Shown here piece after piece: positions 1 to 10,330 of a stretch of 64,000 bases of DNA. Source of the stretch: an uncultured Gemmatimonadales bacterium (GTDB lineage Bacteria; Gemmatimonadota; Gemmatimonadetes; Gemmatimonadales; Gemmatimonadaceae). The notes beneath the pieces are model-generated. The model did not search any database, had not been told where the DNA came from, and saw nothing but the letters and a program-made list of their open reading frames with translations. Numbering within the stretch: position 1 is the first letter of the stretch; each line of letters opens with the position of its first letter. The translations under genes were made by a program, and so were the position numbers. The DNA is taken from the NCBI GenBank assembly GCA_963701965.1, contig OY969695.1:2272001-2336000 (forward strand). The letters run 5' to 3'.

Positions 1-349
1 CCTGGGCCTGGGCCAGCTGCTTGGTCATGCGCGCATCCCGCAGGCTGTCGGCGGAGTGTTGCGCCACCGCGCGTGCGTTGCTCGCCTCGGCGGTCTGCGC
101 GGCGCGCAACGCCACTGTGCTGATGCCGTCCACGTACTGCTGGTTCTGCGCCTGCGTGAACGCCGTCTGCGCGGTGTCGATCGCGCCCTTGGCGCGAATC
201 ATGTCGCCCTCGGCGCGCCGGTCGGCGCCCTGGGTCTGCAGGGTTTGATAAAGCGCCTGCGCCTGCGTCAGCGCCGCCGGCTTCTGCACGGATGCGCCGC
301 ACGCGGCGACGCTGGCGACGGCCGCCAGTATCACGAGACGCCGGATCAT
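1..349 (-). CDS. Lipoprotein with DUF4398-like helical N-terminus (possibly OmpA-family); truncated by window edge
   Basis: Manual translation from ATG at 349: MIRRLVILAAVASVAAC-GASVQKPAALTQAQALYQ...; lipobox VAAC; ATGA overlap with the stop of the upstream gene; not in the ORF track because no stop falls in the window. Confidence 0.7.
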   Translation of the reverse strand, partial: MIRRLVILAAVASVAACGASVQKPAALTQAQALYQTLQTQGADRRAEGDMIRAKGAIDTAQTAFTQAQNQQYVDGISTVALRAAQTAEASNARAVAQHSADSLRDARMTKQLAQAQ

Positions 350-717
350 GGCTTGCTCCCCGAGCTGGCCGTGAGCTTCGCGAGCTGCGCCTGCTCGGCG
401 TCCCGCGCGTGCTCGGTGGCGACGCGCTGCGCATCGGCCTGCGCGAACGCCGCATCGGCCGCGGCCAGTCGCGCGGCGAGCGCCGCGCGATCGAGCTTCT
501 TGGCCTTGGTCAGCGAGTCGGCCTCGACCAGGCGGGCGCGCGCCGAACGGATGGCGTCGGACGACAAACTGTCCGCGCCAGCCTGAGCCGCGGCGCTGAT
601 CAAATCCTTGGCGCGGCTGATGTTGGAAGTGGCATCGCCGACGGTCGGCGGGAACGACCCGCCGCCAGAGGCGCAGGCCGAAAGAACCAGGAGTCCAGTC
701 AGTCGAAAGAGGCGCAT
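346..717 (-). CDS. DUF4398-like alanine-rich lipoprotein
   Basis: MRLFRLTGLLVLSAC lipobox; Ala-rich helical body; start moved to ATG 717 within track ORF 346..834. Confidence 0.7.
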   Translation of the reverse strand: MRLFRLTGLLVLSACASGGGSFPPTVGDATSNISRAKDLISAAAQAGADSLSSDAIRSARARLVEADSLTKAKKLDRAALAARLAAADAAFAQADAQRVATEHARDAEQAQLAKLTASSGSKP

Positions 718-723
718 TGCATA

Positions 724-739
724 TACGGGGTTTGTTCGG
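724..739 (+). promoter_or_regulatory. Candidate SOS-type operator, direct repeat TACGG-N6-TTCGG
   Basis: 11-bp-period repeat just upstream of the radical SAM-imuA-imuB operon; same architecture at 6764-6779 before dnaE2. Confidence 0.4.
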
Positions 740-751
740 TATATACCAAGA

Positions 752-1795
752 GTGACGCAGCAAACCGTGCTCTTCGATGATACCGCCGAAGAGGCCACTC
801 GAACACCCTCGAACTTGGGGTCGCAGGCGGACATTGCCTACTACGGCGCCCGGGCGCAATCGGTGTTGAACACGCCCGAAGCGACCGGCATGGGCTACTG
901 GTCCGTCAACCCGTATGTCGGCTGCGCCTTTGGGTGCGCGTACTGCTACGCGCGGTTCACGCACCGGTATGCCATGGAGCGGGCGCCGGTGGCGGGGGTG
1001 GAGGCGTTGCCGCCGTGGCTCGCGTTCGAGCGGCGGATCATCGTCAAGCCAAACGCGGCCGAGCGGTTGCGCGAGACCCTGCGACATGGGAGTGCGCGGC
1101 ACACGGGGCTGATCGCGGGCGAGGCGCTCGTCATTGGGACGGCGACCGACCCATATCAGCCCGCTGAGCGGCGGTTTCGGGTGACGCGGGGCATCCTCGA
1201 GGTCCTCGCCGATCATGCCGGGATGCGCATCGTCATTTACACCAAGAGTCCATTGGTGACGCGCGACGCGGATGTCCTGATGCGCGTCGCCCGGCGGTCG
1301 CGTGTCACCGTGTTCATCTCGCTCATCACGGGCGATGGCGATCTGGCGCGGCGGTTGGAGCCCCGCGCGCCGACGCCGCATGCGCGGTTGCGCGCCGCCG
1401 AGCGGTTGGTGCGCGCGGGGATCGATGTCGGAATCAACATTGCGCCCGTGTTGCCGGGCATCACTGATGATCCGGCGGCGTTGGATGCGCTGGTGGCGCG
1501 ACTGGCCGCCGCGGGTGTCACACGAGTCTTTGCCGATACGTTGCGCCTGCGGTCGGATGCGCGCCAGCGATATCTCCCCGTCATCGAGGCCGAGTTTCCG
1601 CAGTTGGCGGCGCGATATCGGGCGGCGTACGCGGACGGGTATCGCGTCGGCGAGCGGTATCGCGCCGGCATGCGCCGGGCGCTGGGTCGCATCTGCGCCG
1701 CGCACGGCGTGCAGTTCCGGTCTGGCGATGGCGGCGCCGCCGGGCGCGAAGCGTTGCCAAAATCCGGTCCGGGACAGCTCGAACTCGCGGTCTGA
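752..1795 (+). CDS. Radical SAM protein, SPL-like/Rv2578c-type DNA-repair-associated family
   Basis: NPYVGCAFGCAYCYA (CxxxCxxC), TDPYQPAE, TKSPLVTRD, LEPRAP motifs; GTG 752 chosen as start; C-terminal QLELAV. Confidence 0.85.
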   Translation: MTQQTVLFDDTAEEATRTPSNLGSQADIAYYGARAQSVLNTPEATGMGYWSVNPYVGCAFGCAYCYARFTHRYAMERAPVAGVEALPPWLAFERRIIVKPNAAERLRETLRHGSARHTGLIAGEALVIGTATDPYQPAERRFRVTRGILEVLADHAGMRIVIYTKSPLVTRDADVLMRVARRSRVTVFISLITGDGDLARRLEPRAPTPHARLRAAERLVRAGIDVGINIAPVLPGITDDPAALDALVARLAAAGVTRVFADTLRLRSDARQRYLPVIEAEFPQLAARYRAAYADGYRVGERYRAGMRRALGRICAAHGVQFRSGDGGAAGREALPKSGPGQLELAV

Positions 1796-1830
1796 CCCCG
1801 GTGTCATGATACGGGGTCATGACACGTGTC
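1793..1830. repeat. Nested inverted-repeat (REP-like) element between radical SAM and imuA
   Basis: TGACCCCG...CGGGGTCA arms and an overlapping GTGTCATGA...TCATGACAC pair. Confidence 0.55.
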
Positions 1831-2536
1831 GGGATCGTCGTCGCTACTCGCGCTCAAACAACGGCTTGCCGAAGTCATTCGCGCGCCGGTTCCCGGGTCG
1901 GCCGGCTTGGCGACCGGACTCGACGCGCTCGATCGGGCATTGGCCGGCGGCGGCCTGCCGCGCGGACGGCTGACCGAAATCACGGGACCGCGGGGCAGTG
2001 GCAAGACGACGCTGGTCCGGCGCATCGTCGCCGTGAACGCGGCGCGGGCCACGGGCGACATCGCGGTCGCCTACATCGATGCCGCCCGCACGCTCGTGCC
2101 GCGCGAATGGGCGCATCTGGCCTTGTGGGTGATCCGTCCCGCCGATCCCGGCCGCGGCGCCTGGAGCGCGGACGTGTTGCTGCGGAGCGGCGCCTTTGGG
2201 CTCGTCGTGCTCGACGGCGCGCCGCCGCTCAGCCGGGCGGTGACGGCGCGCCTGACGCAGTTGGCCCGCGACAGCGATGCGGTCCTGCTGGCGCTGGGCG
2301 ACGACGACAGCGGACGGCGGACCAGTGTGCTGGGCGCGACGGTCCGGCTCCGCGTCAGCGGATGGCGGGTCGTGATCGAAAAGGGCGGAAGTCACCACGC
2401 AATGGAGGTGCCGCGTGACATCGGATTGGCGCGTCGCTTGTCTACGCATCCCGAGGTTCCCGATCGGCGCGGTGTGGCGCGCGCCAGGGGCCGCGGACGA
2501 TCTCCGCGATGCGGCGAGCCCCCAGCATTGGGATGA
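1826..2536 (+). CDS. imuA: ImuA/RecA-like mutasome protein
   Basis: TGLDALDRALAGGGLPRGRLTEITGPRGSGKT (RecA-like with Walker A), LLRSGAFGLVVLD; lies before imuB. Confidence 0.8.
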   Translation: MSGSSSLLALKQRLAEVIRAPVPGSAGLATGLDALDRALAGGGLPRGRLTEITGPRGSGKTTLVRRIVAVNAARATGDIAVAYIDAARTLVPREWAHLALWVIRPADPGRGAWSADVLLRSGAFGLVVLDGAPPLSRAVTARLTQLARDSDAVLLALGDDDSGRRTSVLGATVRLRVSGWRVVIEKGGSHHAMEVPRDIGLARRLSTHPEVPDRRGVARARGRGRSPRCGEPPALG

Positions 2537-4188
2537 CCGTCTGCTGGCCCTCGCGCACGACAAGACCCTCAAGACCATTTCGTATGCCGCCGGCCGGCGG
2601 CGGGTGCGCGCCGGCATGACGGTGACCGAGGCCAAGGCCCATTGCGCCGATATCACCATCCTTCCGTGGGATGATGCCATCATCGATCGGGCGGTCACCG
2701 ATGTGACCGCGGCGCTGCTGGCGGCCAGCCCCCAGGTGACGCCGGCCGCCGGCGCGCCCGGCATGTGGTGGGCCGGCGCGAGTGGGCTCGATCGCGTCGG
2801 CGGCGAACCGGAGCTCGTGCGCACGTTGGTCCGCATCGCCAGTCAATGGCATCCCCACGCCCGCGTCGCGGTCGCCGACTCGTGCGTGGCGGCGCGGGCT
2901 GCGACGTGGGCTCTCGGCGACGCTTCGCGTCACGAGAGCCCAGATCGGTTGGACCGATCCCCGCTCCGCCGGGATCCCGGCGACGCTTCGCGTCGCGAGA
3001 GCCCAGATCGGTTGGACCGATCCCCGCTCCGCCGGGATCCCGGCGACGCTTCGCGTCGCGAGAGCCCAGATCGGTTGGGCCGATCCCCGCTCCGCCGGGA
3101 TCCCGGCGACGCTTCGCGTCGCGAGAGCCCAGATCGGTTGGGCCGATCCCCGCTCCGCCGGGATCCCGAGTGCGACCCGATCATCCCCTCCGGGTCGTGA
3201 CGCCGCGTATCTGGCATCGGCTCCCCTCACCCTCGCACCCATGGACGCCGAAGTGCGCGACGCGCTCTTCGCGCTGGGGATCCGGACACTCGGCGCGTTG
3301 GCGGCGTTTACCCCGGCCGACGTCGAGCGGCGCTGGGGCGACGCCGGACTCGCGGCCTGGCGGCTGGCGCGCGGCGACGACCGGCGGCGGCCGGTGCTGG
3401 CGCGCGTCGAGGCGGCGCGGGCCGTCTCGGCCGAGCTGTCCGGAGCAGTGTCGACCCTCGAGCCGGTCCTCTTTCTCGTGCGCGCGGCCCTCGACCGGCT
3501 CGTGGCGCAGCTCCAGGCCGACGGCCGCGCGGCGGCCACGATCGCCATCACCCTCCTGTTGGACGACCGGCGCACCGTCACGCGGGAGATCAGCATGGCG
3601 CGGCCGTTGGCCCGCGCGGCCCCGCTGCTCGAGCGATGCCGGACGCTGTTGGAGCGGTTCACGCTCTCGTCGCCCGTAGCCGGCGTGACCGTCGCGATCA
3701 CCGCGACCGCGCCGGCGTCCGGCGAGCAAGGCAATCTCTTCGACACCGCGTGGCGCGACGGCGGAGCGCTGGACGCCGCGCTCGACCGGTTGCGCACCGA
3801 GCTGGGCGCCGACGCCGTCGTGCGGCCGGTCGCCCGCGACCGGCACTGTCCGGAGCGGAGCGGCGCGTGGGTCGCGGACACGGACGCGGCCGCCGCCCTC
3901 GCGCCGGCGGCATCGACTGCCCCCGTCGCCACGGCGCCGCGCCGGTTTCTCGCCGCGCCCGAGTCCATCGATGTCGAATGCGCCGGCGACCGGCCGATCG
4001 CGTTTCGCTGGCGCGCCCGGCGCATTCCGATCGAGCACGCCATCGGCCCCGAGCGCCTCGCCGGCGACTGGTGGGATGACAGCTATTGCCGCGACTACTG
4101 GCGGTGCGAAAGCCCGGATACCGCGTTCGTCATTTATCGCGACTATCTGCGCGGCGCCCAGTGGTACGTGCAGGGCTGGCACGACTGA
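2415..4188 (+). CDS. imuB: ImuB, catalytically inactive Y-family polymerase homologue; one extra base near 3192 (probable sequencing error) and an internal 63-bp tandem repeat
   Basis: N-half in 2415..3200 (VRAGMTVTEAKAHC); C-half in frame 2782..4188 (LGIRTLGAL, QGNLF clamp motif, GPERLAGDWW...RDYW...WYVQGWHD); removing one G from CCGGG gives IIPSGRDAAYLA. Confidence 0.8.
2915..3168 (+). repeat. Tandem repeat, 4 x 63 bp, in frame inside imuB (21-aa unit GDASRRESPDRL[D/G]RSPLRRDP)
   Basis: Units start at 2915, 2978, 3041 and 3104; two variable positions; internal hairpins GCGACGC-TTC-GCGTCGC and GATCGGT-TGG-ACCGATC. Confidence 0.95.
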
Positions 4189-4198
4189 CCGGCGACGG

Positions 4199-6637
4199 CT
4201 ACTCCGGACGCATCGCGATCACCGGATCGATGGCCGCCGCGCTCCGCGCCGGCAGCCATGACGCGAGCGCCGCGACGCCCAGGAGCGCGATGCAGACCAA
4301 CTCGTATGTGGGCGGGTCGTCCGGGCGAATGCCGTAGAGCAGGGCGGCGAGTACCCGTCCCCCGAGGTAGGCGACGAGCAAGCCGAGCCCGAGGCCGATG
4401 GCGGCGAGTCGGAGCCCTTGCCCGACGACGAGACCCACAACCTGTCCCTCGCGCGCCCCCAACGCCATGCGGATCCCCAGCTCCCGCCGTCGCTCGCGGA
4501 CCGAGTAGGCGAGCACGCCATAGATGCCGATCACGGCGAGCAAGAGCGCCACCGTCGCGAACGCCCCCACCACTGCCGCGTAGAGGCGCGGCCGGGCGAC
4601 CGTCTCCCGCAATGCCTGCGTCATCGTCTGGGCGGAGAAGATCGGCACTTTCGGATCCACGGCCAACACGGCCCGGCGGGCCGCGGGGATCAGCGTGCCC
4701 GGATCCGCGGACGACCGCACGACGAACGTGAGATAGCCGATCGACTGTTGATCGAACGCCGCGTAGAGTCGTGGCCCCGATGGCGCCTTGAGGTCGGCAT
4801 CCTTGGTGTCGCCCACGACGCCGACGATTTCCCCGCCCATGGTGACTGTGTCCCGGTGCCCGGTCGAGTCGCCGGTCCAACCCACGCGGAGGCTCTTCCC
4901 GATCGGCGACTCGCCGGGGAACACTTCCTTCGCGAACGTCTCGTTGACTACCATGACCTGGTGGCCGCCCGGCCGATCGTCATCCGTGAACGTACGCCCC
5001 GCGCGGAGCGGAATGCCCAGGGCCGAGAAGTACCGGGGTGTCACGATCTGGATGTACGCCAGCTGCTTGTGGTCGACAGGATCGGGCGGGCGGCCGTCGA
5101 CGTCGACGGTGCTCATCGCATCGGCGAGTCCGAACGGGACGCCAAATCCCGCGCCGGCCGCGATGGTACCGGGAAGCGCGCCGAGACCCTGGTTGACCGC
5201 GTGCACGAAGCCCCGTTGACTGGCCCACGTGGTGTATTGGGCACGGGGGAGCGTGACGTCGAACCGCACGACGTTCTCCGGTCGGAACCCCGGGTCGACC
5301 GCGATCACTCGCAAGAAGCTGCGCGTGAGGAGTCCCGCGCTGATCAGGAGGAGGACGGCCAGCGCTGTCTCACCGGCGACGAGCGCACTCCGCAGGCGGC
5401 CGGCGCGCCGGTGTGCGCTCGCGCCGCGCGAATCGGACTTGAGCGACGCGAGGACGTCGGAGCTCGCGGCCTGCAGCGCGGGCGCCAGGCCGAAGAGCAG
5501 GCCCGTGAGCACGGCGATCGTCGCGGTGAACATCAGCACCCGCCCGCTCAGGGTCACCTCATCCAGCCGCGGCAGGTTGCCCGGGTGCGTGGCGATAAGC
5601 ACCTGGATACCGGCATACGCCAGCGCCACGCCAGCCGCCGCGCCGGCGCACGACAGGAGCAGGCTCTCGGTGAGCAGTTGCCGCGCGATCCGTCCTCGGC
5701 CGGCGCCGAGCGCGACGCGCACCCCGAGCTCCGCGGCCCGGCCCGAGGCCCGCACCAAGAGCAGGTTGGCGATATTCGCGCAGGCGATGAGCAGCACGCA
5801 TCCCACTGCGCCGAGGAGCACGTAGAGCGCGCCACGGGCGTCACCCACGATGCGATCCCGCAACGGCTGGAGCGTGTAGCGAAAGTCGGCGTCCTCCTCC
5901 AGGTGCTGCTGGCGCAGGCGTTCCGTCACCGTCACGAACTCTTTGCGGCCGCCCTCCAGCGTGACGTTCGGCGCCAGCCGGCCGATGACCTGCACGTAGT
6001 GAGAGGCGCGCATAGCGGGCGCGAGGACCGCGGGATTGAACACCTCGGGGACCCAGATATCCGGGTCCCGCGGAAATGTGAAGCTCCGCGGCGCGACGCC
6101 GATGATCGTGTAGGGTGCGCCATCGAGGTCGATCGTGCGACCGACAGCATGCGCGTCCGCGCCGAACCGCGAGCGCCACAGCGCGTCGCTCAGCACCGCG
6201 ACCTTGGGCGCGCCGACCGCGTCCTCTCCCGGCGCGAACACGCGGCCGTGGGCGGCGGACACGCCGAGGATCGTGAACCAGTTCGCGGTGACGGTGGCCG
6301 CGCTCAAGCGCACGGGATCCGTCTCGCCTGTCATGTTGTTGGTGCCCATCTCGTACACCGCCATCGCGTCCAGCCGGTGCACTTGATCGCGCCAGTCCGC
6401 GAAGTCCGGCGGTGACACGAAGGTCGAATGGGTGGGGCCATCCGCCGACGTGACCGCGACCAGGCGGTCAGGGGCGCCAAAGGCCAGCGGGTTGAGCAGC
6501 ACGCTGTCGACGACGCTGAAGATCAGTGTGTTGGCGCCGATCGCGACGGCGAGCGTCACGACGATGGCGAGAGCAAACCACGGGGCCATCCGGAGACTCC
6601 GGAAGGCGGTGCGCAGGTCGGCGAGCAGGGTGTCCAT
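4199..6637 (-). CDS. ABC transporter permease, duplicated MacB/FtsX (ADOP-type), no adjacent ATPase
   Basis: DLRTAFRSL...TLAVAIGANTLIFSVV, LLIACANIANLLL, RELGIRMALGA, PARSAAAIDPVIAMRPE. Confidence 0.92.
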   Translation of the reverse strand: MDTLLADLRTAFRSLRMAPWFALAIVVTLAVAIGANTLIFSVVDSVLLNPLAFGAPDRLVAVTSADGPTHSTFVSPPDFADWRDQVHRLDAMAVYEMGTNNMTGETDPVRLSAATVTANWFTILGVSAAHGRVFAPGEDAVGAPKVAVLSDALWRSRFGADAHAVGRTIDLDGAPYTIIGVAPRSFTFPRDPDIWVPEVFNPAVLAPAMRASHYVQVIGRLAPNVTLEGGRKEFVTVTERLRQQHLEEDADFRYTLQPLRDRIVGDARGALYVLLGAVGCVLLIACANIANLLLVRASGRAAELGVRVALGAGRGRIARQLLTESLLLSCAGAAAGVALAYAGIQVLIATHPGNLPRLDEVTLSGRVLMFTATIAVLTGLLFGLAPALQAASSDVLASLKSDSRGASAHRRAGRLRSALVAGETALAVLLLISAGLLTRSFLRVIAVDPGFRPENVVRFDVTLPRAQYTTWASQRGFVHAVNQGLGALPGTIAAGAGFGVPFGLADAMSTVDVDGRPPDPVDHKQLAYIQIVTPRYFSALGIPLRAGRTFTDDDRPGGHQVMVVNETFAKEVFPGESPIGKSLRVGWTGDSTGHRDTVTMGGEIVGVVGDTKDADLKAPSGPRLYAAFDQQSIGYLTFVVRSSADPGTLIPAARRAVLAVDPKVPIFSAQTMTQALRETVARPRLYAAVVGAFATVALLLAVIGIYGVLAYSVRERRRELGIRMALGAREGQVVGLVVGQGLRLAAIGLGLGLLVAYLGGRVLAALLYGIRPDDPPTYELVCIALLGVAALASWLPARSAAAIDPVIAMRPE

Positions 6638-6763
6638 GCGCCAAGTCTATGAAAGTGCCGTGCCCGCCACATCACAATCCTAACTATCTACAAAATAAGA
6701 GCTTATGTGCCGAAGGCACCAAGCGATTTGATCGAAGTCGGGATGAACAGTTCCAGATCTGGT

Positions 6764-6779
6764 TTCGGCTTATATTCGG
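6764..6779 (+). promoter_or_regulatory. Direct repeat TTCGG-N6-TTCGG overlapping a -10 box (TATATT 6771-6776) 6 nt before the dnaE2 ATG
   Basis: TTCGGCTTATATTCGG; leaderless geometry; matches the 724-739 motif. Confidence 0.5.
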
Positions 6780-6782
6780 GAT

Positions 6783-9700
6783 ATGTCGTACGTCGAGTTG
6801 CACTGCCACTCGGCCTTTTCGCTGCTCGATGGCGCATCGATTCCCGAAGCGTTGGTCGATCGCGCGGCCGCTCTCGGGATGCCGGCGCTGGCGCTCACCG
6901 ACCACGACGAGCTCGGAGGATTCGTCCGCTTTGCCCAGGCGGCGCGGACCGCCGGGATCGACGCCATCATCGGCAGCGAGATCACGGTCGCCGGATCGCA
7001 TCTGGTGCTGTTGGCCGAGTCCCGCCAGGGCTACGGCAACCTGTCGACGCTCATCACCCTCGGCCGGATGGGCGCTCAGCGCGGCGAGCCGTCGGTCGCG
7101 CTCGACCAAGTCGCGGCCCACGCCGCGGGACTCCTGGCGCTGACGGGTTGTCCCCGCGGGTGGGTGCCGTCGCGACTGGCGGCAGGCGACCCGCGCGGGG
7201 CCCGCGCGGCCGCGGGGACCTTGGTCGACATCTTCGGCCGCGACCACATCGCGATCGAGTGCTGGGATCACGGCCTGCCCGAGGAGCGCGAGCTCGTGCG
7301 CGGGCTCCTCGGTATCGCCAAGGCCGCCGGCGTGCCGTGGGTCGTCACCAACGACGTGCACTACGCCGAGCCCGGCGGCCGCATCGTGCAGGAATGTGTT
7401 GTCCTGCCTCCGACACCAGTCCACGCTCGACGCGATGGGGACGCGGCTCCGGCCGAACAGTGAGTGGTACCTCAAGAGCGACGCCGAGATGCGAAGCCGG
7501 TGGGAGGACCCCGCCGGGGTGCGGGCCACCGAGGCCATCGCCGAGCGTTGCCGGTTCCGGCTGGACGATCTCCACGCCACGCTCCCGCGGTTCGCGGTGC
7601 CGGACGACAAGACACCGGATGCCTACCTTGCCGAACTGGTCGAGCAAGGCGCGGTCGCGCGGTGGGGGGGGCGACGAACGGATAAGCAGCGGCGGCAGCT
7701 CGATCACGAGCTGGCCATGATCCGGCAGCTCGGCTACGCCGGGTTCTTTCTCATCGTCTGGGACATCATGCGGTTTGCCCGCGAAGAGGGCATCCTCGCC
7801 CAGGGCCGTGGCTCGGCGGCCAACTCGGCCGTCTGCTACTGCCTCGGCATCACGGCCGTCGATCCTATTCGCATGGGATTGCTCTTCGAGCGGTTTTTGA
7901 GCGAAGGACGGCGCGAGCCGCCGGACATCGATCTCGATTTCGCGCACCGCGAGCGCGAGCGGGTGATCCAGTACGTCTATGCCACGTACACGCGGGAGCA
8001 CGCGGCAATGGTCTGTGAGCAGATTACCTATCGCGGCCGCTCCGCGGTCCGCGATGCGGCGCGCGTGTTCGGGTTCTCGGTGGAGCAAGCCGGCGTCCTC
8101 GCCGATCTCAGCGATCGGTTTTCGGCGCGCGAGACCGCGGCGACGCTGCGCGGCGCTGACGCGCCGGCAGCGCGCCCCCGGCCGCTCAAGCGATCACCGC
8201 ACGAGATGCGGGCGGTCGCATCCAAGCCCAATGACGATCACGATCGCCATCACGATCATGAATACCACCACGAACCCGAGCACCGTCACGACCACGAAGA
8301 GCGGCGCAATCCGACGACGGCGATTCGGCCGCACGACCATGTGCTGACGCGCGCCGGGCTCGATCCGGCGGACCGGCGCGTCGCGCTCCTGGCCGACGTC
8401 GTCGACGGGCTGCATCAGCTGCCCCGGCATCGCTCGATCCACGTCGGCGGTTTCGTCCTGACCGACGAACCCTTGTCGACCGTCGTGCCGATCGAGCCGG
8501 CATCGATGCCGGACCGCACGGTGATCCAATGGGAACGCGACGATCTCGAAGGCGCGGGCCTGATCAAGATCGACCTGCTCGGCCTCGGGATGCTGACACT
8601 GCTGCAGGATTGCATCCTGTATATCGCCAGGATGCGGGGCACGACGATCGACCTGGCGCATCTCGACATGTTCGACGCGGACGTCTACGCCAGCATGAGC
8701 CGCGCCGACACCATTGGCGTCTTTCAGATCGAGAGCCGGGCGCAGATGAGCACCCTGCCGCGGCTCCAGCCGCGTTGCTTCTACGATCTCGTGGTCGAGG
8801 TGGCGATCATTCGCCCGGGTCCGATCCAGGGCGACATGGTGCACCCGTACTTGCGCCGGCGCGCGGGCCGTGAAACGATCGAGTACCCCCATCCCAAGCT
8901 CCGCCCGATCCTCGAGCGCACGCTCGGCGTGCCGCTCTTTCAGGAGCAGGGGATGCAGGTGGCCATCGCCTGCGCCGGGTTCACGCCCGGCGAGGCGGAC
9001 AACCTGCGCCGGGCGATGGGACACAAGCGTTCGCGCGAGAAGATGGCGGCGATCCAGGACGCGCTCGTGGGCGGCATGATCCGGAACGGCATCGCGCCGG
9101 ACCTGGCCGCGCGCATTTACAAACAGATCAACGGGTTCGCGGATTACGGATTCCCCGAGTCGCACGCCGCGAGCTTCGCGTTGCTCGTGTATGCGTCGGC
9201 GTATCTGCGCTTCTATTACGCGCCGGAGTTTCTGGCGGCCATTCTCAACGCGCAGCCCATGGGGTTTTACGCCCCGGGGACACTGGTCGAAGACGCCCGC
9301 CGTCACGGCGTCGAGGTGCGACCCGTCGATCTCACCTGCTCCGATTGGGACTGCACGCTCGAGTCTACGGCCTCCGCGCCCGCGACCCGTCTCGGCTTAC
9401 GCTGTGTCCGTGGCCTCGGCACCGCGGCGAAGAACGCGTTGGCCCGGGCGCGAAGCGCCGGGCCATTTCGATCGGTGGAGGATTTTGTCGATCGCGTGCG
9501 GCTTGATCGACGAGCGGTGCGACAGTTGGCGGAGGCTGGCGCGTTCGACACAATGGTCGGCGGGACGCGCCGCGACGCGCTGTGGCGCGTGCTGGAAGCA
9601 CAGCGCGGGACCGGCGGGCCGCTCGTCGTGCACCCGCCCACCCCCACCCCGGCGCACGTGCCGGCAATGGCGCCGTACGAACTGACCGCGGCCGACTATC

Positions 9701-10092
9701 GCACGACCGGTCTCTCCCTCAACGGCCACCCCATGATCCACCTGCGCGCGACGATCCGGCCCAATGGGATTCGCACGGCCCTGGACATCGTGACGCACGG
9801 GCGGGACGGCGAACGGATCGCGGCGGCGGGGCTCGTCATCTGCCGCCAGCGGCCGGGCACGGCGAAGGGATTCGTCTTTCTGACGCTCGAAGACGAAACG
9901 GGCACCCTCAACGTGGTCGTCACGCCGAAACGCTTCGAGCGCCACGCGCTCGTGATCTCGCGGACGCCACTGCTTTTGGTGCGGGGCACACTGCAGGTGG
10001 AAGAGGGGGTCGTGAACCTGCGGGCCGACACGTTCAAGGTCCTCGACGCCCCGGTGGGCGCCGAGCACGCCCAGCGCCACGACTTTCACTAG
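6783..10092 (+). CDS. dnaE2: Error-prone DNA polymerase III alpha DnaE2 (ImuC); one extra base near 7393 (probable sequencing error)
   Basis: PHP domain YVELHCHSAFSLLDGAS...TNDVHY; GRGSAANSAVCYCLGIT, PPDIDLDF, HRSIHVGG, YGFPESHA, RQRPGTAKG; C-terminal HDFH typical of DnaE2; removing one A joins RIVQDVLSCLRH. Confidence 0.92.
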
Positions 10093-10330
10093 CCGCCGCC
10101 GACTCCCGATCCACGATCGTCCCGAACTGGGTCCACGACACGTTCATCGCGGACAGCAACTGATCGATTTTCACCGCGGTCGGATTGAACACGCCCCGTT
10201 CGATTCGGCTGATATACGCGCGCGCGACACCCGCGGTCGCCGCCAGGCGTTCTTGAGACACGCCGGCCTCCTCGCGAACGACGCGAATCGCTTTCGCCAG
10301 AATCGCCGAGGTCACGGCACGCGGGCGCAC
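10089..10330 (-). CDS. XRE/Cro-family HTH regulator (RM controller C-protein-like)
   Basis: IRVVREEAGVSQERLAATAGVARAYISRIERG..NPT HTH_3 pattern. Track ORF 10034..10330 suggests the true stop is at 10034, overlapping the dnaE2 end, so the 3' coordinate is uncertain. Confidence 0.8.

Follow-up and report, generated by a model that had tools for sequence, protein, structure and literature searches.

A SplB-like radical SAM gene with clamp-binding-like tails ahead of imuA-imuB in a Gemmatimonadales bacterium

Why should a radical S-adenosylmethionine (SAM) enzyme be encoded at the head of a gene set for mutagenic DNA synthesis? This question is raised by a window of 64,000 nucleotides (nt) from an uncultured Gemmatimonadales bacterium (assembly GCA_963701965.1, contig OY969695.1, positions 2,272,001 to 2,336,000), which lies within a single-contig genome of 5.12 Mb that is 95% complete. 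In this window, a SplB-like radical SAM gene (positions 752..1795, + strand) directly precedes imuA and imuB, two of the three genes of the ImuA-ImuB-DnaE2 mutasome. The original prediction regarded its product as a possible fourth component of the mutasome, tethered to the β sliding clamp. From sequence and structure comparisons, we lean towards another reading, in which the protein would be an SOS-induced, likely clamp-tethered and independent DNA repair enzyme acting at clamps on damaged DNA, and not a mutasome subunit.

Terminal motifs and the sliding clamp

The radical SAM gene is translated from a GTG start into 347 amino acids (aa) beginning VTQQTVLF and ending QLELAV before the stop codon, with CAFGCAYC at residues 58-65, and a database protein, likewise of 347 aa, matches it at 100%. 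The peptides quoted in the original prediction were all found in the sequence, and only the first residue differs, the GTG start giving VTQQTVLF. A clamp-binding-like motif lies at either end, the pentamer QTVLF at residues 4-8 (positions 761..775, + strand) and the hexamer QLELAV at residues 342-347 (positions 1775..1792, + strand). Both tails are predicted to be disordered, with a predicted local distance difference test score (pLDDT) below 50 at residues 4-15 and 327-347 of an AlphaFold model. The conservation of the motifs, on which the original prediction depended, was confirmed among the closest homologues, the best 119 of 6822 matches, of which 110 were evaluable for the N-terminal tail. 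The pattern Q-x-x-[LM]-[FL] was present in the N-terminal tail of 94 of the 110, the C-terminal pattern, which also admits V, M or I at the last place, in 108 of the 119, and both in 87 of the 110. Among 4044 crudely called genes of the same genome, the background was 37 for the first 27 aa and 36 for the last 20 aa. The patterns were set after the sequences had been viewed and the homologues are kin, so these counts are not independent. Only the Gln and two hydrophobic anchor positions are fixed, with variable flanks and mixed Gln codons (CAG 41, CAA 10). The C-terminal motif has Leu at position 2 in 99 of 108 cases and fits Q-phi-x-[LM]-x-[FL] in most homologues, following the definition in PMC11139829. 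In the N-terminal motif Q, L and F are fixed (QxxLF in 91 of 110), and positions 1, 4 and 5 are those that weigh most in the clamp motif (PMC3919608).

The motifs were further compared with those of the replication proteins of this genome, whose clamp gene dnaN lies at G000:C1:2640947-2642053 (-). In the replicative DnaE, QGSLF stands near residue 925, between the helix-hairpin-helix (HhH, 813-896) and oligonucleotide-binding (OB, 1002-1080) domains, which is where the DnaE clamp motif sits (PMC3919608). ImuB carries QGNLF (positions 3727..3741, + strand), a clamp-like motif as in mycobacterial ImuB (PMC10421592). QGSLF in DnaE shows that a non-aliphatic position 2 is in use in this genome, and together with QGNLF in ImuB and QMSLF in a DUF72 protein it favours taking the form Q-G/T-x-L-F for a clamp motif in this organism. 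Outside the phylum, 10 of 36 matches in a plasmid collection were taken for taxonomic spread, nine of them from outside Gemmatimonadota. Eight of these nine homologues end in QEPLF, QLTLL, QYSLF, QGELF, QESLF, QLSLF, QLSLL and QLRLF, and the ninth, a short Paenibacillus protein, has no terminal motif. This indicates that the C-terminal tail is family-wide and the N-terminal tail mostly a Gemmatimonadales feature.

Several observations weigh against a clamp ligand. The hexamer of the protein studied here ends in V, not L or F. Position 2 of the N-terminal motif is mostly G, T, I, A or S, at a place defined as aliphatic where Ala or Gly weakens binding (PMC11139829). Among 150 distant representatives, many of them fragments or frameshifted, the C-terminal pattern was found in 44 of 131 and the N-terminal pattern in 17 of 95. 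When a DnaN dimer was modelled with both 30-residue tails and the N-terminal tail was scored, the interface score ipSAE was 0.12 and 0.25 against a mark of 0.32; controls were not folded, and this complex is unlike the calibration, so the prediction was counted neither way. The tails might instead be proteolysis tags or bind another partner, in which case the gene would merely share an SOS promoter with imuA-imuB. Protease tags have a hydrophobic C-terminus of the -LAV type, like that of the protein studied here; moreover, the N-terminal motif departs from the canonical position 2, and short motifs are readily over-read. Against this explanation stand the fixed Gln, the clamp-type spacing and the residues that often follow the motif, the interchange of pentamer and hexamer forms across phyla, and the use of the same Q-G-x-L-F form by DnaE and ImuB of this genome. 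We consider the tag explanation improbable. Judged from the alignments, the clamp-type tails on this SOS radical SAM enzyme are real and conserved, and they very probably bind the β sliding clamp.

Other proteins also carry clamp-like sequences. A DUF72 protein of this genome (L237:225-1031 (-)) ends in QMSLF; DUF72 lies 3' of imuB in the same-genus genome G001, and in L126 and L137 it neighbours the radical SAM gene. A protein of the metallo-beta-lactamase fold (L238:205-972 (+)) ends in QLSLGL. In addition, of 27 Gemmatimonadales loci in which the DnaA linker was visible, 26 have a clamp-like QMDLF or QMDFF in it (L034-L063 and the dnaA gene L003:2757-4034 (-), which adjoins dnaN). This linker motif could reflect direct clamp-coupled control of the initiator; other DnaA-like genes exist.

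Family, fold and active site

The protein scored 54.6 bits against the radical SAM model PF04055 (gathering score 29.5), which places it in the superfamily. Its CxxxCxYC [4Fe-4S] motif (positions 923..946, + strand) consists of C58, C62 and C65, followed by Y66, and the three cysteines are kept in all 65 rows of alignment A1, hand-picked from 120. Whole-domain homology was detected to Rv2578c (E 2e-64) and PA0069 (E 2e-58). The corresponding NCBIfam scores were under the cut-offs (217 against 430 for the Rv2578c model NF038135 and 198 against 360 for the PA0069 model NF033668), as was the score of 20.1 against 400 for the spore photoproduct lyase (SPL) model TIGR04070. By homology, the protein is a member of the broad COG1533/SplB-like group of SOS radical SAM proteins, a label taken from PMC8565304 and not from a COG search. 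In a tree of 51 hand-picked rows (the query, 10 named records, 11 of 80 loci and 29 of 150 representatives), the query fell into a clade of 12 rows (100/99), the named ones all from Gemmatimonadota, which is separate from the Rv2578c and PA0069 clades. The named homologues of the protein belong to Gemmatimonadaceae/Gemmatimonadota. Annotated members of the Rv2578c and PA0069 families also end in a C-terminal clamp-like motif. Unlike them, the protein studied here belongs to a separate Gemmatimonadales clade, carries the extra N-terminal motif and is often encoded in an operon with imuA-imuB. Searches detected the gene in 35 of the 40 relatives and, across the phylum, in 86 of 121 genomes, its own counted among these. 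One genome marked as unpublished (G012) is one row in the 35 of 40 and in several counts given below (the four relatives with imuA at 1-5 kb, the 28 lexA loci, the 30 recA loci, the 75 of 101 loci with a box and the comparison of motifs with imuA adjacency); no conclusion rests on this row.

The AlphaFold model, built from A1, had a pLDDT of 85.7 and a predicted template modelling (TM) score of 0.85. The resemblance to SPL was borne out at the level of the predicted fold, SPL being the closest structure both in Foldseek (E 9e-10, TM 0.56-0.61) and in VIA-align (Z 20.5, root-mean-square deviation 3.3-3.4, 271 residues aligned; next family 16.8). SPL also ranked first when a profile of alignment A3, with 82 rows made up of the query plus 81 sequences picked by hand from the 150 representatives and mostly of full length, was searched against the PDB (E 5e-4). 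Searches of PDB sequences with the query and with A1 gave a chance match only, and the ESM Atlas returned generic radical SAM clusters only. SplB (TIGR04070; PDB 4FHC), the closest solved fold, shares CxxxCxYCY and several SAM-contact residues with the protein. The A3 profile aligned CxxxCxYCY, Ser195 and Ala234 of SPL (numbering as in PMC3467042), and the equivalents of SPL Tyr96, Tyr98, Ser195 and Ala234 are retained in the family. At the mapped place of SPL Cys140 stands Thr130 (in 63 of 65 and 67 of 82 rows), in a register inferred from the spacing of Asp143 (also from PMC3467042) and not from a residue-level structural alignment, and at the mapped place of the clostridial Cys77 position stands Ala44. 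The fourth cysteine of SPL, its hydrogen donor, is therefore apparently missing in this protein. Other cysteine columns are 262 (42 of 65 rows), 315 (57 of 65) and 42 (17 of 82).

The resemblance to SPL has limits. Identity to SPL is 14-16%, the lesion-flipping β-hairpin (Arg304/Tyr305) was not located, no residue-level superposition having been made, and since all radical SAM barrels score Z ~15, the fold leaves the substrate unfixed. SPL is, moreover, controlled by sporulation and not induced by damage (PMC12029717), in contrast to the likely LexA box and clamp-like tails here. A clamp-tethered enzyme might instead direct its radical, in the SOS response, at a target other than a lesion for reversal, modifying a base, a nucleotide or some protein of the replisome. 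Such chemistry would fit the Thr at the hydrogen-donor position (in the inferred register), the next structural neighbours (pyruvate formate-lyase-activating enzyme, RlmN and viperin, at Z 15-17) and the SPL model score of only 20 bits against a cut-off of 400. It fits less well with a match to SPL that extends over the whole domain, 3.7 Z clear of any other family, with the retained equivalents of Tyr96, Tyr98, Ser195 and Ala234, and with the cysteines at 262, 315 and 42, which could be candidate donors. We regard non-lesion chemistry as unlikely. By analogy with SPL, the substrate is rather probably a DNA lesion; no substrate of SplB-like SOS radical SAM proteins was found in the literature searched.

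A likely LexA box and the relation to the mutasome

A likely LexA box, TACGG-N6-TTCGG (positions 724..739, + strand), lies 12 nt 5' of the start codon of the radical SAM gene and is the only such site ahead of rSAM-imuA-imuB. It differs by one mismatch from TTCGG-N6-TTCGG, which is the likely LexA box of Gemmatimonadales as judged from its placement. At least two exact copies were present 5' of lexA in 28 of 28 evaluable loci (two were skipped), and a copy with at most one mismatch 5' of recA in 30 of 30 loci. The box was found 5' of dnaN in 0 of 25 loci (five skipped), a weak control because these regions are mostly dnaA coding sequence, and other spacings in these tests gave 0-3. Of 101 homologous loci, moreover, 75 have T[TA]CGG-N6-TTCGG within 600 nt 5' of the cysteine motif; other spacings gave 0, as did coding controls. 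In this genome, the box also lies 5' of ruvB-like (named from its sequence, not by search), rSAM_link_UDG-like, DUF763 and DUF5131 genes. Abundance speaks against the box, as exact sites numbered 16 genome-wide compared with 9-36 for other spacings, and five sites occur in the window where 6.5 are expected. Without enrichment at either scale, the argument for the box is thus one of position and conservation. The alphaproteobacterial direct-repeat LexA box is GTTC-N7-GTTC. A direct-repeat box also occurs in Balneolaeota (PMC7739468). Like these, the box described here is a direct repeat of 11-bp period and lies 5' of lexA, recA and translesion synthesis genes. The box here differs from the known direct-repeat boxes in its consensus and in its two copies 5' of lexA. 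No paper on Gemmatimonadota was among the 20 literature matches listed of 263.

SOS control of such genes has precedents. SplB/COG1533 genes are SOS-regulated in several groups (PMC3323433, PMC8565304, PMC3381160), with a LexA peak at Rv2578c/Rv2579 (PMC3381160), and the linkage of splB-like genes to SOS neighbourhoods has been described. A 'Radical SAM protein' of Streptomyces venezuelae, possibly of another family, is up 20-fold with mitomycin C. The literature covered also included PMC3765255, PMC9380542 and PMC11791011.

Further features were noted around the boxes. The likely LexA box was recorded at G000:C1:4877025-4877095 in this genome (G000), next to lexA (G000:C1:4876420-4877025 (-)), and in loci L174-L233. 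Upstream regions of recA have a TTCG[TC]-type variant in most of the same family, and the genome box scan gave no exact site for a second lexA-like gene (L002). The rSAM_link_UDG-like gene (L234:132-1394), a second radical SAM gene under the cut-off of its model, has the same box in this genome, and in L077 such a gene (L077:6111-7505) separates the gene studied here from imuA. A small zinc-ribbon-like open reading frame (ORF; CPxC...GCxxCxxCGWxxC[GSA]) was seen in 39 loci, nearly all just 5' of the radical SAM gene, in other Gemmatimonadales families (e.g. L024-L030, L032, L116-L153); it is absent from the window.

With the box in place, how tightly is the gene tied to the mutasome? It heads rSAM-imuA-imuB, as originally proposed, and the likely LexA box lies 5' of it. 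The RecA-like imuA (positions 1826..2536, + strand; ImuA model 50 bits, under the cut-off of 150) starts 30 nt past its stop codon, and imuB (positions 2415..4188, + strand), a Y-family polymerase gene with IMS and IMS_C domains, overlaps the 3' end of imuA. The wider view of positions 752..10092 as one cassette holds for this unit but not for dnaE2 (positions 6783..10092, + strand; NF004225 over cut-off), which is separated from it by a minus-strand permease gene and has its own exact likely LexA box, TTCGGCTTATATTCGG (positions 6764..6779, + strand), 3 nt upstream. On gene order, the locus is therefore two predicted transcription units, rSAM-imuA-imuB and dnaE2, with the permease between them. 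The locus contains all three genes of the ImuA-ImuB-DnaE2 cassette, split over two units that each have a likely LexA box of their own. It departs from that cassette in that the radical SAM gene comes first and dnaE2 stands apart, divergent from the permease. In the same-genus genome G001, the rSAM-imuA-imuB block lies ~30 kb from the permease/dnaE2 block.

This arrangement speaks for a fourth, clamp-tethered mutasome subunit that processes lesions or crosslinks, given the 30-nt gap and the sole box ahead of all three genes. Such a subunit would also fit the relatives. Among the 35 that have the gene, it lies within 400 nt 5' of imuA in 14 and within 1-5 kb in four; an imuA-, imuB- or dnaE-like gene lies within ~5 kb downstream in 22 of the 46 long-flank loci (of 80 GTDB loci); and all 10 genomes tested that have the radical SAM gene also have a second DnaE. 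These downstream genes and second DnaEs count against an independent enzyme. A suggestion that many relatives have the gene and lack dnaE2 was rejected, as the E-value limit had hidden a divergent second DnaE in all 10. The same surveys hold the evidence against a fourth subunit. The conservation of imuA adjacency on which the original prediction had counted failed, with the gene directly before imuA in only those 14 relatives; by coordinates, imuA lies elsewhere or on another contig in five, and 12 of the 35 have no imuA match at E 1e-15 beyond recA, although a divergent imuA may be missed. In G007, the gene is 840 kb from imuA, and imuA is directly 3' of it in only four of the 46 long-flank loci. 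Two genomes that are 100% complete and have imuA and dnaE2 (G015 and G020) gave no match to this gene in protein and family searches. Nor do the motifs follow adjacency: the N-terminal motif is present in 8 of 12 imuA-adjacent and 9 of 17 other cases, and the C-terminal motif in 10 of 11 and 12 of 16. The C-terminal motif is family-wide away from imuA, with no imuA or imuB match within 2 kb of any of the nine homologues from outside Gemmatimonadota, and a PA0069-family protein ending in QLRLF occurs in a single 4.9-Mb Aeromonas record with one DnaE and no DnaE2. In addition, the words 'Rv2578c' and 'radical' are absent from the mycobacterial mutasome paper PMC10421592. The gene order is explained by the clustering of SOS genes under one box. 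A fourth subunit thus appears very unlikely, and the protein is probably a stand-alone SOS repair enzyme that shares its regulation with the mutasome.

For such an independent enzyme, we consider the following mechanism likely. LexA would repress lexA, recA, dnaE2 and the radical SAM gene, as the shared repeat suggests, and damage would lift this repression. The enzyme would dock on clamps at stalled forks or gaps via one or both tails. Its C-terminal motif, older and family-wide, would occupy a DnaN pocket, and the N-terminal motif, largely a Gemmatimonadales addition, could raise avidity by letting the enzyme span both pockets of the dimeric clamp, or help it in competition with ImuB and Pol III. 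A 5'-deoxyadenosyl radical derived from the [4Fe-4S] cluster and SAM would then abstract hydrogen from a lesion that has been flipped out. The likeliest such lesion would be a pair of covalently linked pyrimidines resembling the spore photoproduct, an assignment that we make tentatively by analogy with SPL. Since the fourth cysteine of SPL is apparently absent, the radical would be quenched otherwise, perhaps with one SAM per turnover.

Few SOS genes are reported as widely as the SplB-like radical SAM genes, which in most cases carry no label beyond photolyase. A clamp-type tail found across the family indicates a likely site of action and offers a handle on their role in damage-induced mutagenesis. 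The component parts are already known, and the operon arrangement probably is too. A splB-imuA-imuB-dnaE2 operon is said to have been described in Verrucomicrobia by Erill in 2016. The literature searched, which lacked several key papers, gave no mention of clamp tails or any clamp motif on this radical SAM family, of a second tail at the N-terminus or of the likely LexA box of Gemmatimonadales, and the word 'radical' does not occur in the clamp review PMC11139829. As a speculative possibility, the long-form SplB-like family (Rv2578c, PA0069 and the Gemmatimonadales clade) may be unrecognised sliding-clamp partners and the first replisome-recruited radical enzymes, reversing a lesion either ahead of translesion polymerases or in rivalry with them, with the Gemmatimonadales form gripping both pockets of the clamp dimer and so gating access of the mutasome.

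Frame changes, repeats and neighbouring genes

Both polymerase genes of the locus contain one frame change, near 3180 in imuB and near 7395 in dnaE2. In relatives these genes are intact, imuB as a single ORF in G001 and G004 and dnaE2 as a 1079-aa ORF in G001. In a survey of 184 ORFs from 18 regions of G001, 139 had an orthologue in this genome, eight of which change frame here relative to G001, including dnaA and the gene adjoining the start of the window; three of the eight lie within 20 kb of each other. The broken dnaA and the clustered breaks indicate assembly indels, and the frameshifts in imuB and dnaE2 are probably sequencing errors. At the average rate, however, two frame changes in this locus would be uncommon (~1%), so the polymerase genes may be decaying in this strain.

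A tandem repeat of a 63-nt unit (4.1 copies, with hairpins; positions 2908..3168) is inserted in imuB. About 16 further copies, 82-91% identical, are dispersed in the genome, many inside called ORFs. In sequence character, this hairpin-rich unit is an element like repetitive extragenic palindromic (REP) sequences that inserts in coding sequence. A His/Asp/Glu-rich insertion of 18-nt repeats was also observed in dnaE2 (8234-8298).

The permease gene (positions 4199..6637, - strand) encodes an ADOP duplicated permease of 812 aa (TIGR03434, 921 bits, over cut-off) and lies outside the system. Upstream of the radical SAM gene, a small lipoprotein-like gene is divergent (positions 346..717, - strand; its start at 717 is inferred), and the 34-nt intergenic region between the two contains the likely LexA box. 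Translation of the radical SAM gene from a TTG further upstream, at 608, was discounted, since it would run across the divergent gene and the box. A scan of positions 500-7000 for sigma-70 promoters and terminators gave no match. At the other end, a small XRE-type helix-turn-helix gene (10034-10330 (-)) converges on dnaE2. Elsewhere in the genome, a second dnaE2-like gene was found at G000:C1:243000-252000, a region without imuA or imuB matches. It adjoins ORFs that resemble a group II intron reverse transcriptase and an insertion sequence transposase, named by eye, and the region is possibly foreign or contaminant DNA.

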